DNA from: Escherichia coli
Lineage (GTDB): Bacteria > Pseudomonadota > Gammaproteobacteria > Enterobacterales > Enterobacteriaceae
Assembly: GCF_050320075.1 (NCBI RefSeq)
Contig: NZ_CP190018.1
Length of the DNA: 64,000 nt
Direction: 5' to 3' (one strand)
A model generated the notes under the pieces. That model was not told the DNA's origin, made no database searches, and worked only from the letters and a program-made list of their open reading frames with translations. Position numbers and translations under genes: made by a program. Positions 3,459 to 61,494 of this stretch are shown one piece after another. Position 1 is the stretch's first letter; each line of letters opens with the position of its first letter.

Positions 3459-3664
3459 AAAAAAAAGCACCGCAATTAGGCGGTGCTACATTAATCACTA
3501 TGGACAGACAGGGTAAATGTACAGGAAGTGAAAAAAGGTAGCTTTGCTACCATGGTCTGAATCGCAGACCAATTGCAAACACAACAACACAACATCACAA
3601 CCGTAAGCCAAAAGTTCACCAGAACACGCATTCCGATAAAACTTTTCGTTCCGGCTCAGGAAGT
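3459..3664 (-). ncRNA. gcvB: GcvB small regulatory RNA (Hfq-dependent, represses amino-acid and peptide transporters)
   Basis: Reverse complement begins ACTTCCTGAGCCGGAACGAAAAG and ends in hairpin GCACCGCCTAATTGCGGTGC plus T8; GU-rich stretch GTTGTGATGTTGTGTTGTTGTGTTTGC present; divergent from gcvA. Confidence 0.9.
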
Positions 3665-21833: not shown

Positions 21834-22200
21834 GTCGACAGGGAGTCAGACAACGAAGTGAACATCAGGATGATGACACTTCTGAAGGACACACCAGGAT
21901 GGTGTTTCAGGGAAAGGCTTCTGGATGAAGCGAAGAGGATGACGCAGGACGCGTTAAAGGACACCTCCAGGATGGAGAATGAGAACCGGTCAGGATGATT
22001 CGGTGGGTCAGGAAGGCCAGGGACACTTCAGGATGAAGTATCACATCGGGGTGGTGTGAGCAGGAAGCAATAGTTCAGGATGAACGATTGGCCGCAAGGC
22101 CAGAGGAAAAGTTGTCAAGGATGAGCAGGGAGCAACAAAAGTAGCTGGAATGCTGCGAAACGAACCGGGAGCACTGTGAATACAGTGCTCCCTTTTTTTA
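21834..22200 (+). ncRNA. csrB: CsrB sRNA (CsrA-sequestering)
   Basis: About 365 nt with reiterated CAGGATG/AGGATG/AGGA motifs (at least 8 exact AGGATG plus many GGA variants); ends in intrinsic terminator GGGAGCACTGTGAATACAGTGCTCCC plus T7 (22163-22199); 5' end approximate. Confidence 0.9.
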
Positions 22201-22244
22201 TTCCTGCTATCCTTCGCGGCAGTTTTTCTTATTGAGGTTGCTTT

Positions 22245-32715: not shown

Positions 32716-34950
32716 ATGGTTGCGGTAAGAAGTGCACATATCAATAAGGCTGGTGAATTTGATCCGGAAAAATGGATCGCAAGTCTGGGTATTACCAGCC
32801 AGAAGTCGTGTGAGTGCTTAGCCGAAACCTGGGCGTATTGTCTGCAACAGACGCAGGGGCATCCGGATGCCAGTCTGTTATTGTGGCGTGGTGTTGAGAT
32901 GGTGGAGATCCTCTCGACATTAAGTATGGACATTGACACGCTGCGGGCGGCGCTGTTGTTCCCTCTGGCCGATGCCAACGTAGTCAGCGAAGATGTGCTG
33001 CGTGAGAGCGTCGGTAAGTCGGTCGTTAACCTTATTCACGGCGTGCGTGATATGGCGGCGATCCGCCAGCTGAAAGCGACGCATACCGATTCTGTTTCCT
33101 CCGAACAGGTCGATAACGTTCGCCGGATGTTATTGGCGATGGTCGATGATTTTCGCTGCGTGGTCATCAAACTGGCAGAGCGTATTGCTCATCTGCGCGA
33201 AGTAAAAGATGCGCCGGAAGATGAACGTGTACTGGCGGCAAAAGAGTGCACCAATATCTACGCGCCGTTGGCGAACCGTCTTGGGATTGGACAACTGAAA
33301 TGGGAGCTGGAAGATTACTGCTTCCGTTATCTCCACCCGACCGAATACAAACGCATCGCAAAACTGCTGCATGAACGCCGTCTCGACCGCGAACACTATA
33401 TCGAAGAGTTTGTCGGCCATCTGCGCGCTGAGATGAAAGCTGAAGGCGTTAAAGCTGAAGTGTATGGTCGACCGAAACACATCTACAGCATCTGGCGCAA
33501 AATGCAGAAAAAGAACCTCGCCTTCGATGAGCTGTTTGATGTGCGTGCGGTACGTATTGTCGCCGAGCGTTTACAGGATTGCTATGCCGCACTGGGGATA
33601 GTGCACACTCACTATCGCCACCTGCCGGATGAGTTTGACGATTACGTCGCTAACCCGAAACCAAACGGTTATCAGTCTATTCATACCGTGGTTCTGGGAC
33701 CAGGTGGCAAAACCGTTGAGATCCAAATCCGCACTAAACAGATGCATGAAGATGCAGAGTTGGGTGTTGCTGCGCACTGGAAATATAAAGAGGGCGCGGC
33801 AGCTGGCGGCGCACGTTCGGGACATGAAGACCGGATTGCCTGGCTGCGTAAACTGATTGCGTGGCAGGAAGAGATGGCTGATTCCGGCGAAATGCTCGAC
33901 GAAGTACGCAGCCAGGTCTTTGACGACCGGGTGTACGTCTTTACGCCGAAAGGTGACGTCGTTGATTTGCCTGCGGGATCAACGCCGCTGGACTTCGCTT
34001 ACCACATCCACAGTGATGTCGGGCACCGCTGCATCGGGGCAAAAATTAGCGGGCGCATTGTGCCGTTCACCTACCAGCTGCAGATGGGCGACCAGATTGA
34101 AATTATCACCCAGAAACAGCCGAACCCCAGCCGTGACTGGTTAAACCCAAACCTCGGTTACGTCACAACCAGCCGTGGGCGTTCGAAAATTCACGCCTGG
34201 TTCCGTAAACAGGACCGTGACAAAAACATTCTGGCTGGGCGGCAAATCCTTGACGACGAGCTGGAACATCTGGGGATCAGCCTGAAAGAAGCAGAAAAAC
34301 ATCTGCTGCCGCGTTACAACTTCAATGATGTCGACGAGTTGCTGGCGGCAATTGGTGGCGGGGATATCCGTCTCAATCAGATGGTGAACTTCCTGCAATC
34401 GCAATTTAATAAGCCGAGTGCCGAAGAGCAGGATGCCGCCGCGCTGAAGCAACTTCAGCAAAAAAGCTATACGCCGCAAAACCGCAGTAAAGATAACGGT
34501 CGTGTGGTGGTTGAAGGTGTCGGTAACCTGATGCACCACATCGCGCGCTGCTGCCAGCCGATTCCTGGAGATGAGATTGTCGGCTTCATTACCCAGGGAC
34601 GCGGTATTTCAGTGCATCGTGCAGACTGTGAGCAACTGGCGGAACTGCGCTCCCATGCGCCAGAACGCATTGTTGACGCGGTATGGGGCGAGAGCTACTC
34701 CGCCGGATATTCGCTAGTGGTCCGCGTGGTGGCTAATGATCGTAGTGGGTTGTTACGTGATATCACGACCATTCTCGCCAACGAGAAGGTGAACGTGCTT
34801 GGCGTTGCCAGCCGTAGCGACACCAAACAGCAACTGGCGACCATCGACATGACCATTGAGATTTACAACCTGCAGGTGCTGGGTCGCGTGCTGGGTAAAC
34901 TCAACCAGGTGCCGGATGTTATCGACGCGCGTCGGTTGCACGGGAGTTAG
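32716..34950 (+). CDS. relA: GTP pyrophosphokinase ((p)ppGpp synthetase I)
   Basis: 744-aa ORF recognised as RelA. Confidence 0.95.
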   Translation: MVAVRSAHINKAGEFDPEKWIASLGITSQKSCECLAETWAYCLQQTQGHPDASLLLWRGVEMVEILSTLSMDIDTLRAALLFPLADANVVSEDVLRESVGKSVVNLIHGVRDMAAIRQLKATHTDSVSSEQVDNVRRMLLAMVDDFRCVVIKLAERIAHLREVKDAPEDERVLAAKECTNIYAPLANRLGIGQLKWELEDYCFRYLHPTEYKRIAKLLHERRLDREHYIEEFVGHLRAEMKAEGVKAEVYGRPKHIYSIWRKMQKKNLAFDELFDVRAVRIVAERLQDCYAALGIVHTHYRHLPDEFDDYVANPKPNGYQSIHTVVLGPGGKTVEIQIRTKQMHEDAELGVAAHWKYKEGAAAGGARSGHEDRIAWLRKLIAWQEEMADSGEMLDEVRSQVFDDRVYVFTPKGDVVDLPAGSTPLDFAYHIHSDVGHRCIGAKISGRIVPFTYQLQMGDQIEIITQKQPNPSRDWLNPNLGYVTTSRGRSKIHAWFRKQDRDKNILAGRQILDDELEHLGISLKEAEKHLLPRYNFNDVDELLAAIGGGDIRLNQMVNFLQSQFNKPSAEEQDAAALKQLQQKSYTPQNRSKDNGRVVVEGVGNLMHHIARCCQPIPGDEIVGFITQGRGISVHRADCEQLAELRSHAPERIVDAVWGESYSAGYSLVVRVVANDRSGLLRDITTILANEKVNVLGVASRSDTKQQLATIDMTIEIYNLQVLGRVLGKLNQVPDVIDARRLHGS

Positions 34951-34959
34951 GCCGAAATT

Positions 34960-35012
34960 AGCTCGTATCTACAATGTAGATTGATATATACTGTATCTAC
35001 ATATGATAGCGG
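34960..35012 (+). promoter_or_regulatory. mazEF promoter region with alternating palindrome
   Basis: ATCTACAATGTAGAT and TATCTACATAT palindromic elements 15-60 bp upstream of mazE. Confidence 0.6.
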
Positions 35013-35027
35013 TTTGAGGAAAGGGTT

Positions 35028-35276
35028 ATGATCCACAGTAGCGTAAAGCGTTGGGGAAATTCACCGGCGGTGCGGATCCCGGCTACGTTAATGCAGGCGC
35101 TCAATCTGAATATTGATGATGAAGTGAAGATTGACCTGGTGGATGGCAAATTAATTATTGAGCCAGTGCGTAAAGAGCCCGTATTTACGCTTGCTGAACT
35201 GGTCAACGACATCACGCCGGAAAACCTCCACGAGAATATCGACTGGGGAGAGCCGAAAGATAAGGAAGTCTGGTAA
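35028..35276 (+). CDS. mazE: type II antitoxin MazE
   Basis: 82-aa ORF recognised as MazE (AbrB/SpoVT fold); stop overlaps mazF start. Confidence 0.95.
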
Positions 35277-35611
35277 TGGTAAGCCGATACGTACCCGATA
35301 TGGGCGATCTGATTTGGGTTGATTTTGACCCGACAAAAGGTAGCGAGCAAGCCGGACATCGTCCGGCTGTTGTCCTGAGTCCGTTCATGTACAACAACAA
35401 AACAGGTATGTGTCTGTGTGTTCCTTGTACAACGCAATCAAAAGGATATCCGTTCGAAGTTGTTTTATCCGGTCAGGAACGTGATGGCGTAGCGTTAGCT
35501 GATCAGGTAAAAAGTATCGCCTGGCGGGCAAGAGGAGCAACGAAGAAAGGAACGGTTGCCCCAGAGGAATTACAGCTCATTAAAGCCAAAATTAACGTGC
35601 TGATTGGGTAG
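35276..35611 (+). CDS. mazF: type II toxin MazF (ACA-specific mRNA interferase)
   Basis: 111-aa ORF recognised as MazF (PemK/CcdB fold). Confidence 0.95.
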   Translation: MVSRYVPDMGDLIWVDFDPTKGSEQAGHRPAVVLSPFMYNNKTGMCLCVPCTTQSKGYPFEVVLSGQERDGVALADQVKSIAWRARGATKKGTVAPEELQLIKAKINVLIG

Positions 35612-35682
35612 GTGTTACTAACTCACTTCTATTCTGGTCACAGGTTTCCACCTGACGGACCCGCAATTTTCAGGACATTCTA

Positions 35683-36474
35683 ATGAATCAAATCGACCGT
35701 TTGCTCACCATCATGCAGCGCCTGCGCGATCCGGAAAACGGCTGCCCGTGGGATAAAGAGCAGACATTTGCCACCATTGCGCCTTACACCCTTGAAGAAA
35801 CCTACGAGGTGCTGGACGCCATCGCCCGTGAAGATTTTGACGATCTTCGCGGTGAACTGGGCGATCTGCTGTTCCAGGTGGTGTTTTACGCACAAATGGC
35901 TCAGGAAGAAGGGCGCTTTGACTTTAATGATATATGCGCCGCGATCAGCGATAAATTAGAACGTCGCCATCCGCATGTTTTTGCTGACAGTTCTGCCGAA
36001 AACAGTAGTGAAGTGCTTGCCCGTTGGGAGCAAATCAAAACCGAAGAGCGCGCGCAGAAAGCGCAGCATTCGGCGCTGGACGATATTCCTCGTAGTTTAC
36101 CGGCTTTAATGCGTGCGCAAAAAATCCAGAAACGTTGCGCCAACGTTGGTTTTGACTGGACGACGCTTGGTCCGGTAGTCGATAAAGTCTACGAAGAGAT
36201 CGACGAGGTGATGTACGAGGCACGGCAGGCTGTTATCGACCAGGCTAAACTGGAGGAGGAAATGGGCGACCTGCTGTTTGCCACGGTCAATCTGGCTCGT
36301 CATTTAGGGACAAAAGCGGAAATCGTATTGCAAAAAGCGAACGAAAAATTCGAGCGTCGTTTTCGCGAAGTGGAGCGTATTGTTGCCGCGCGTGGACTGG
36401 AAATGACAGGTGTTGACCTCGAAACAATGGAAGAAGTCTGGCAACAGGTAAAACGGCAGGAAATTGATCTCTAA
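35683..36474 (+). CDS. mazG: nucleoside triphosphate pyrophosphohydrolase
   Basis: 263-aa ORF recognised as MazG (tandem MazG domains). Confidence 0.92.
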   Translation: MNQIDRLLTIMQRLRDPENGCPWDKEQTFATIAPYTLEETYEVLDAIAREDFDDLRGELGDLLFQVVFYAQMAQEEGRFDFNDICAAISDKLERRHPHVFADSSAENSSEVLARWEQIKTEERAQKAQHSALDDIPRSLPALMRAQKIQKRCANVGFDWTTLGPVVDKVYEEIDEVMYEARQAVIDQAKLEEEMGDLLFATVNLARHLGTKAEIVLQKANEKFERRFREVERIVAARGLEMTGVDLETMEEVWQQVKRQEIDL

Positions 36475-58557: not shown

Positions 58558-60269
58558 TGAGCGAAAAACATCCAGGGCCTTTAGTGGTCGAAGGAAAACT
58601 GACAGACGCCGAGCGCATGAAGCTTGAAAGCAACTACCTGCGCGGCACCATTGCGGAAGATTTAAACGACGGTCTGACCGGCGGCTTTAAGGGCGATAAC
58701 TTCCTGCTGATCCGCTTCCACGGCATGTATCAGCAGGATGACCGCGACATCCGCGCCGAACGTGCTGAACAGAAGCTGGAGCCACGTCATGCAATGCTGT
58801 TGCGCTGCCGTCTGCCGGGTGGCGTGATTACCACCAAACAGTGGCAGGCGATCGATAAATTTGCCGGTGAAAACACCATCTATGGCAGCATTCGCCTGAC
58901 CAACCGCCAGACGTTTCAGTTCCACGGCATTCTGAAAAAGAACGTCAAACCGGTGCACCAGATGCTGCACTCGGTCGGTCTTGATGCGCTGGCGACTGCT
59001 AACGACATGAACCGTAACGTACTCTGCACCTCGAACCCTTACGAGTCGCAGCTACACGCGGAAGCGTATGAATGGGCGAAGAAAATCTCTGAACATCTGC
59101 TGCCGCGTACCCGCGCGTATGCGGAGATCTGGCTCGATCAGGAAAAAGTCGCCACCACCGATGAAGAACCGATCCTCGGTCAGACTTATTTGCCGCGTAA
59201 ATTCAAAACTACGGTAGTGATCCCGCCGCAGAACGATATCGATCTGCATGCCAACGACATGAACTTCGTGGCAATCGCCGAAAACGGCAAGCTGGTGGGC
59301 TTTAACCTGTTGGTGGGCGGTGGGCTTTCTATCGAACACGGCAACAAGAAAACCTACGCCCGCACGGCGAGTGAGTTTGGCTATCTGCCGCTGGAGCATA
59401 CGCTGGCGGTGGCAGAAGCCGTCGTGACGACTCAGCGCGACTGGGGTAACCGTACCGATCGTAAAAATGCCAAAACCAAATACACGCTGGAGCGCGTGGG
59501 GGTTGAGACGTTTAAAGCGGAAGTGGAGCGTCGCGCGGGGATCAAATTTGAACCGATCCGTCCATATGAGTTCACCGGACGCGGCGATCGTATTGGCTGG
59601 GTTAAAGGCATTGATGATAACTGGCACCTGACGCTGTTTATCGAAAATGGTCGCATCCTTGATTATCCTGGGCGTCCGCTGAAAACCGGCCTGCTGGAGA
59701 TCGCGAAGATCCACAAAGGCGATTTCCGCATTACGGCGAACCAGAATCTGATCATCGCCGGTGTGCCGGAAAGCGAGAAAGCGAAGATCGAGAAGATTGC
59801 CAAAGAGAGCGGGTTAATGAATGCCGTCACGCCGCAGCGTGAAAACTCAATGGCCTGCGTGTCATTCCCGACTTGCCCGCTGGCGATGGCCGAAGCCGAG
59901 CGTTTCCTGCCGTCTTTTATCGACAACATCGATAATTTAATGGCGAAACATGGTGTCAGCGATGAGCATATCGTGATGCGTGTAACAGGCTGCCCGAACG
60001 GTTGTGGTCGCGCGATGCTGGCGGAAGTGGGCCTGGTGGGTAAAGCGCCGGGTCGCTACAACCTGCATCTTGGCGGCAACCGCATTGGGACACGTATCCC
60101 ACGGATGTATAAAGAAAACATCACCGAACCGGAAATCCTGGCGTCGCTTGATGAACTGATAGGGCGCTGGGCGAAAGAGCGCGAAGCGGGTGAAGGCTTC
60201 GGCGACTTTACGGTGCGTGCGGGCATCATTCGCCCGGTGCTCGATCCGGCGCGCGATTTGTGGGATTAA
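58557..60269 (+). CDS. cysI: sulfite reductase [NADPH] hemoprotein beta component
   Basis: 570-aa ORF recognised as CysI; TAATG overlap with cysJ. Confidence 0.95.
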
Positions 60270-60288
60270 CCATCAGCCCGGTCTTGTA

Positions 60289-60321
60289 GGCCTGATAAGA
60301 CGCGTGAGCGTCGCATCAGGC
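60289..60321. repeat. REP / palindromic unit between cysI and cysH
   Basis: GGCCTGATAAGACGCGTGAGCGTCGCATCAGGC, same arms as the REP split by the IS. Confidence 0.7.
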
Positions 60322-60342
60322 AAGGCAAACAGTGAGGAATCT

Positions 60343-61077
60343 ATGTCCAAACTCGATCTAAACGCCCTGAACGAACTGCCGAAGGTAGATCGCATTCTGG
60401 CGCTGGCAGAAACTAACGCCGAACTGGAAAAACTGGACGCTGAAGGCCGCGTTGCCTGGGCGCTGGATAATCTGCCCGGTGAATATGTACTTTCTTCCAG
60501 TTTCGGCATTCAGGCGGCGGTGAGCCTGCATCTGGTGAATCAGATTCGCCCGGATATTCCAGTGATCCTCACCGATACGGGTTACTTGTTCCCGGAAACC
60601 TACCGCTTTATTGACGAGTTAACGGACAAACTCAAGCTCAACCTGAAAGTGTACCGCGCTACCGAAAGCGCCGCCTGGCAGGAAGCACGTTACGGAAAAC
60701 TGTGGGAGCAGGGTGTTGAAGGCATTGAAAAGTACAATGACATCAACAAAGTCGAACCGATGAACCGGGCGCTGAAAGAACTGAATGCGCAAACCTGGTT
60801 TGCTGGCCTGCGCCGTGAACAATCCGGCAGCCGCACCAATTTACCGGTGCTGGCAATTCAGCGTGGCGTATTTAAAGTGCTGCCGATTATCGACTGGGAT
60901 AACCGAACTATTTATCAGTACCTGCAAAAACATGGCCTGAAATATCACCCATTATGGGATGAAGGATATTTATCGGTCGGTGATACCCATACAACCCGTA
61001 AATGGGAACCCGGCATGGCGGAAGAAGAAACGCGTTTCTTTGGCTTAAAAAGAGAATGTGGGTTACACGAAGGGTAA
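60343..61077 (+). CDS. cysH: phosphoadenosine phosphosulfate (PAPS) reductase
   Basis: ORF 60190..61077; start placed at [12 protein letters not shown] giving 244 aa; upstream extension overlaps the REP and is rejected. Confidence 0.93.
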
Positions 61078-61128: not shown

Positions 61129-61341
61129 ATTTTGCGAGCAGCATTCCTGATTTTAAACGTGAACGCCGCTGGAAGAATTATCAGGTATAGAATGGCGTTG
61201 GGTGCTTGAGGCTGTCTGGCGTTAAGCATTCGCGAGGTTCCAGATGGACAAAAGCCCCAGGCGATATTTCTATCAACCTGAGGCCAGCGTTCGAACCTAA
61301 GCAATTCGAATGTTAGTCTCTTCTTTGCAGGGAGGCAAGAC

Positions 61342-61494
61342 ATGCTGACAAAATATGCCCTTGTGGCAATCATCGTACTGTGTTGTACAGTACTGGGATT
61401 CACGCTGATGGTAGGCGACTCGTTGTGTGAGTTGAGTATCAGAGAACGTGGTATGGAGTTTAAGGCAGTTCTCGCTTACGAATCGAAGAAGTAG
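61342..61494 (+). CDS. Hok-family type I toxin (50 aa, HokE/HokX-like)
   Basis: ATG 61342 preceded by GGGAGG; product [50 protein letters not shown] has one TM helix and the conserved Hok C-terminal region; below the ORF-track size cutoff. Confidence 0.8.

Follow-up and report, generated by a model that had tools for sequence, protein, structure and literature searches.

We found that positions 34960-35611 of a 64,000-nucleotide stretch of Escherichia coli DNA, hereafter called the window, almost certainly hold the chromosomal mazEF type II toxin-antitoxin module of this species in its canonical, intact form, situated between relA and mazG. This span, which had been delimited in a preliminary description made from the letters alone, extends from 10 nt past the relA stop to the final base of the mazF stop codon, and judging from the sequence we met nothing that would argue against the canonical identity. 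The locus is already fully described in the literature, including its antisense RNA aMEF, its three-site operator and the polymorphism in which mazEF is absent, and in itself it matters little, as it only confirms that the window comes from an E. coli lineage with an intact accessory mazEF cassette of the standard form. For the annotation of the region, however, the analysis brings corrections, namely the three MazE sites lying on a three-arm repeat, an annotated antisense RNA that covers the whole regulatory region, and the presence/absence boundaries at 34951 and 35641. The features on which we rely are collected in the table.

Features of the mazEF locus, in coordinates of the window
Feature	Position	Strand	Size	Basis and remarks
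relA, GTP pyrophosphokinase	32716-34950	+	744 aa	ORF; Pfam HD_4, RelA_SpoT, TGS and ACT domains
aMEF (ameF, b4844), antisense RNA	34917-35316	-	~400 nt	Transferred from the K-12 annotation (2911051-2911450)
mazEF cassette, relative to mazEF-less genomes	34951-35641		691 nt	BLAST breakpoints against L003 and L004
relA-mazE spacer	between 34950 and 35028		77 nt	ORF listing
mazEF operator region 'cab', three MazE-dimer sites overlapping the promoter region	34962-35012			Match to a published 51-mer
Operator site 'c', GTATCTACAATGTAGATTG	34965-34983			Site sequence from PMC4333400; contains ATCTACAATGTAGAT, a string of the preliminary description
Operator site 'a', TTGATATATACTGT	34981-34994			Site sequence from PMC4333400; ATATAT palindrome at 34984-34989
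Operator site 'b', ATATACTGTATCTACATAT	34986-35004			Site sequence from PMC4333400; its 3' end is TATCTACATAT, the other string of the preliminary description
mazE, labile antitoxin and DNA-binding autorepressor	35028-35276	+	82 aa	ORF, PF04014, K-12 identity
mazF, ACA-specific endoribonuclease toxin	35276-35611	+	111 aa	ORF, PF02452, K-12 identity
mazG, NTP pyrophosphohydrolase	35683-36474	+	263 aa	ORF; Pfam MazG

Identity and layout of the mazEF locus

As the reference we used the K-12 strain MG1655 (NC_000913.3, 2908000-2916500), a segment comprising rlmD, relA, mazE, mazF, mazG and pyrG, to which the window is 98.0% identical over 7.07 kb. The alignment to K-12 mazEF, which the preliminary description had proposed as a check on its statement that the module is intact, revealed no amino acid difference in either MazE or MazF, and both frames are full length, without frameshift or truncation; since not a single residue departs from K-12, a disrupted frame is excluded. 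The window shares with the K-12 mazEF locus (chpA; b2783/b2782) its location, its flanks (rlmD-relA on one side and mazG-pyrG-eno on the other), both proteins, the operator and the 1-nt overlap of the two genes. The gene order rlmD-relA-mazE-mazF-mazG-pyrG-eno is found likewise in K-12 and in strain 7/2. The gene mazE does directly follow relA, as had been described, the two being separated by the short spacer given in the table, and the reported single-nucleotide overlap was also borne out, since the mazE stop codon TAA (35274-35276) and the mazF ATG (35276-35278) have one base in common in the sequence TAATG, which couples the two genes in translation; both are on the same strand, with the antitoxin first. 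A GAGG Shine-Dalgarno motif precedes mazE at 35016-35019, and that of mazF, AAGGAAG at 35262-35268, lies within mazE. Downstream, mazF and mazG are separated by 71 nt. The terminator scan returned no plus-strand terminator-like site in 34800-35800, and none between relA and mazE. The gene mazG has been reported to belong to the same operon as the genes upstream of it (PMC1626106; PMC7167474), and in the window, too, the downstream mazG would be expected to be part of that operon.

Family assignments agree with the alignment. MazE matches PF04014, the N-terminal AbrB/SpoVT/MazE DNA-binding domain, over residues 6-51 with 52.9 bits (cut-off 24.7), and MazF matches PF02452 (PemK_toxin) with 84.8 bits (cut-off 23.1). 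The more specific NCBIfam equivalog models were matched as well, NF007312 by MazE with 196 bits (cut-off 113) and NF007386 by MazF with 227 bits (cut-off 120), and both proteins correspond over their full length to solved structures (1mvf_D and 1ub4_C for MazE; 3nfc, 5ck9 and 1ub4_A for MazF). Taken together, the identity to K-12, the Pfam domains, the equivalog matches, the structures and an operator that agrees with the published one at 50 of 51 bases uphold the designation of this pair as the canonical chromosomal mazEF. The E. coli paralogue chpBIK (chpS/chpB), which occupies a chromosomal locus different from that of mazEF, has in common with it the protein families and the order of antitoxin then toxin, but is distant in sequence: the ChpB model gave 55 bits for MazF (cut-off 129), and the ChpS model gave 35 bits for MazE (cut-off 101). 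Similarly, the plasmid systems pemIK and parD kis-kid share the PemK_toxin fold family (PF02452) and are type II modules with an autoregulating antitoxin, whereas the best true plasmid relatives among the PemK/MazF-family modules, those of Providencia, are at most about 70% identical, and most others fall below 60%. Another toxin-antitoxin locus of the window, this one of type I, lies at 61200-61494, where an Rfam sok antitoxin match at 61200-61357 (plus strand; 111.7 bits against a gathering score of 59) is overlapped by a 50-amino-acid Hok-like ORF at 61342-61494, with another ORF just upstream at 60190-61077.

mazEF as an accessory cassette, and its role

The distribution of the module was followed in 5426 complete E. 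coli genomes. Module DNA was matched in 4506 of them, 4415 with a coverage of at least 80%, and lay on the chromosome in every case, and the relA-mazE spacer was present as one chromosomal copy in each of 4418 complete genomes. When the query extended from relA to mazG, 5425 genomes matched, about 1010 of these by the flanks only. Approximately 81% of the 5426 genomes thus carry mazEF, and it is absent from about 19%. The mazEF-less allele, found for example in UTI89 and Ecol_732, has relA and mazG flanks that are 97-99% identical to the window, but 54 nt with a 12-bp hairpin (GCTGGATATGGC....GCCGTATCCAGC) replace the 691 nt of the window. The exact boundaries of the cassette rest on two mazEF-less genomes, L003 (699-751) and L004 (701-753), in both of which homology ends precisely with the relA stop codon (34949/34950) and restarts at 35642, leaving the 54-nt segment in between. 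A 101-nt stretch of this allele that includes the hairpin folds with -34 kcal/mol (z = -4.26). These comparisons indicate that mazEF is an accessory 691-nt cassette, either inserted in or lost from the relA-mazG operon, in keeping with the published statement that 'relA-mazG ... form undisturbed bicistronic operons' in strains such as UTI89 (PMC7167474). At the population level, mazEF would then be an accessory element inserted in a relA-mazG operon that is otherwise functional.

Among the 5426 complete genomes no E. coli mazEF allele was detected on a plasmid; it was chromosomal only. One record of the plasmid collection, NZ_OL790696.1, whose mazF match has 98% identity, was considered as a plasmid-borne mazEF and discarded, since it is a 4.8-Mb E. 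coli record, evidently a misfiled chromosome, and therefore gives no evidence for mazEF on a plasmid. A rearranged locus was seen in strain SW07163 (NZ_CM129852.1; L005 2288-3354), in which an IS1 element stands directly next to the final 18 nt of mazE, in place of the rest of that gene and of everything upstream back to xni, so that mazF remains intact without its antitoxin gene at that place. The MazF protein of this strain has the same accession as that of a strain 100% identical to the window at the DNA level. The orphan mazF is possibly tolerated through lack of expression or through cross-neutralisation by ChpS.

The proposed mode of action of the window's module follows that worked out for the characterised proteins. 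MazE is reported to be labile, being degraded by ClpAP and Lon (PMC1626106; PMC8749433), and the identical MazE of the window should be subject to the same proteolysis. Free MazF would cut RNA at ACA, the mazEF mRNA included, and would thereby inhibit translation and growth; we assign this activity to the window's protein because it is 100% identical in amino acid sequence to the characterised one (PMC5888573). What such a module does for the cell is disputed in the literature, where reversible stasis, programmed death, phage defence or exclusion, and selfish persistence have all been put forward (PMC1626106; PMC7167474). Our preference is for an accessory, addiction-like cassette that inhibits translation reversibly. 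Another reading grants that the mazEF sequence is intact but sees in the module a selfish passenger without function, which persists solely through its addictive behaviour and plays no part in the stress physiology of the host. The roughly one fifth of complete genomes in which a plain relA-mazG spacer stands in place of mazEF would fit such a passenger, as would the reports that relA-mazG works without mazEF and that deletion of five toxin-antitoxin systems caused no fitness defect under stress (PMC7167474), and the IS1 replacement of mazE and its upstream region in SW07163 shows that the locus tolerates disruption. On the other hand, the two proteins and the operator hardly vary among thousands of genomes, and phenotypes have been published, namely growth arrest induced by stress and reduced infection by phage P1 (PMC7167474; PMC1626106). 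We consider a pure passenger rather unlikely; moreover, this reading concerns only the biological role, and the molecular mechanism given above for reversible inhibition by mazEF is not contradicted by it.

Differences from the K-12 allele and the K-12-annotated antisense RNA aMEF

The differences between the window and K-12 mazEF are few and look neutral. There is no nucleotide difference in mazE; mazF differs at six nucleotides, all synonymous (codons 26, 30, 36, 93, 100 and 108); the relA-mazE spacer has its sole change at 34960, which is A in the window and T in K-12; and an extra G at 35612, directly after the mazF stop, lengthens the mazF-mazG spacer by one nucleotide relative to the 70 nt of K-12. 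At least 20 complete RefSeq genomes contain, with 100% identity, the 732-nt sequence (34951-35682) that includes all of these positions, and annotate mazE and mazF as such. In the neighbouring relA, 62 nucleotides differ from MG1655 and change a single amino acid, residue 445 (34048-34050), which is Ser in the window and Gly in MG1655; the RelA of a window-identical strain has the accession WP_000226798.1, and WP_000226815.1 was found in the other strains sampled.

In K-12, mazE contains two ACA sites and mazF nine, and MazF has been found to cleave its own mRNA in vivo (PMC5888573). In the window, mazE likewise has two ACA sites and mazF has eight, one having been lost relative to K-12 through the synonymous change ACA>ACG in codon 93 (35554).

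The regulatory region is also covered on the opposite strand by the antisense RNA aMEF annotated in K-12, which had been overlooked in the preliminary description. As mapped from K-12, aMEF would take in 41 nt at the 5' end of mazF, the whole of mazE, the operator and, at the 3' end of relA, 34 nt; its promoter would be situated in mazF, at about 35317-35391. Of the 400 nt of the RNA region, one (34960) is not as in K-12, and the 75 nt upstream of the RNA show three differences, at -37, -49 and -67. The aMEF promoter has been described as weak, non-canonical and located within mazF, and knock-down of aMEF by silent mutations halved the levels of the MazE and MazF proteins and shifted the transcripts from monocistronic mazE to dicistronic mazEF, an effect independent of RNase III (PMC8749433). 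By analogy, aMEF of the window, started inside mazF, may tune the ratio of mazE to mazEF transcripts as well as their form and yield. Rfam has no family for aMEF. Elsewhere the window carries two full-length small RNA genes, CsrB at 21843-22202 (plus strand, 382.9 bits) and GcvB at 3459-3664 (minus strand, 199 bits), and in the whole 64 kb no tRNA gene was found.

The loss of the mazF ACA at 35554, or the three synonymous changes upstream of the aMEF promoter core, could in principle shift post-transcriptional autoregulation measurably relative to K-12, although we regard this as very doubtful. If it were so, the shifted autoregulation would alter the fluctuation of MazF and the cell-to-cell heterogeneity in comparison with K-12, and the natural variation in the set-point of a toxin-antitoxin system would be encoded wholly by synonymous sites. 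Another reading holds that this strain has mazEF but that the module is silent or wrongly controlled because of strain-specific changes, these being the A at 34960, the lost mazF ACA and the changes upstream of the aMEF start. Differences from K-12 do exist at 34960, 35353, 35365, 35383 and 35554, but every coding change is synonymous, 34960 falls outside the operator, and the complete identity of the 732-nt sequence in at least 20 other complete genomes marks it as a common natural allele; silencing or miscontrol of the module appears highly improbable.

The operator as a three-arm repeat

Zorzini et al. (2015) described a 47-bp mazEF operator with three sites for MazE dimers, named c, a and b (PMC4333400). 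Comparison of the published 'cab' 51-mer with the window gave a match at 50 of 51 bases, the mismatch being the last base; because K-12 and the window are identical at that base, the deviation belongs to the printed oligonucleotide. Binding of MazE to exactly these operator sequences was measured by ITC, EMSA and NMR, with KD values of about 0.5-5 uM for operator fragments, single sites included, and MazF raised the affinity of MazE for the DNA near a 1:1 ratio and lowered it when in excess (PMC4333400). Transferred to the window, MazE dimers would use their N-terminal AbrB/SpoVT-type domain to contact sites c, a and b, MazF would raise this operator affinity at about 1:1 and lower it in excess, and binding of MazE or MazE-MazF at c-a-b would repress the mazEF promoters that overlap the operator. 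Two -10-like hexamers are found inside the sites, TACAAT (34970-34975) in site c and TATACT (34987-34992) in site a, so that bound MazE would be expected to occlude RNA polymerase. A sigma-70 consensus scan gave no site in the operator, only sites at chance level (2 against 1.0 +/- 1.0 expected).

The preliminary description had spoken of two palindromes in the promoter region, and only one of them is palindromic. The string ATCTACAATGTAGAT, which occurs once in the window (34967-34981), is indeed a perfect 7-1-7 inverted repeat with arms at 34967-34973 and 34975-34981. By contrast, TATCTACATAT (34994-35004), whose reverse complement is ATATGTAGATA, lacks self-complementarity and represents instead the third arm of a larger arrangement. 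The direct repeat GTATCTACA at 34965-34973 and 34993-35001 shows that the third arm repeats the first, and the middle arm ATGTAGAT (34974-34981) is complementary to the third arm ATCTACAT (34995-35002), with which it forms an 8-nt inverted repeat separated by 13 nt. The operator is thus a three-arm structure whose middle arm is able to pair with either neighbour. The central ATATAT, which is the core of site 'a', had escaped notice as well. This three-arm repeat corresponds to the 'alternating palindrome' of the mazEF P2/P3 promoter named in the title of Marianovsky et al. (2001).

To what extent such repeats stand out was evaluated against shuffles. Perfect inverted repeats of 7 nt with loops of up to 3 nt are unenriched in the window as a whole (27 against 20.5 +/- 4.9 in dinucleotide shuffles), and one 7-nt inverted repeat arose in 2.5% of the shuffles of the 77-nt spacer, whereas the three-arm arrangement was met in 1 of 20,000 spacer shuffles. 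The 7-1-7 palindrome alone is therefore unremarkable at the scale of the window, and is significant only by its position and by the three-arm arrangement. We also considered whether the inverted repeats might work as an RNA hairpin (a relA terminator or a structure of the mazE leader) and not as a protein-binding DNA operator, and rejected this as having practically no likelihood. The repeats do lie directly past the relA stop codon, and the 8-bp stem formed by 34974-34981 with 34995-35002 is present in centroid folds, but the leader from the relA end to mazE as RNA (z = +0.16) and the operator as single-stranded DNA (z = -0.64) fold no better than shuffles. A loop of 1 nt is too short for the 7-1-7 repeat to fold into a hairpin, the repeats are not followed by a T-run, and the scan returned no plus-strand terminator site. 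MazE binding to the same sequences is published (PMC4333400), and the mazEF-less allele, with its genuine hairpin downstream of relA, illustrates how a structure of this kind appears at the locus.

The operator was compared among six E. coli alleles chosen across the range of identity, namely the window, K-12, an O157:H7 strain and three others. The operator core (34963-35007) is invariant in all six, and every variable position lies outside it, in the flanking spacer; in this small sample, the invariance is consistent with constraint on the operator.
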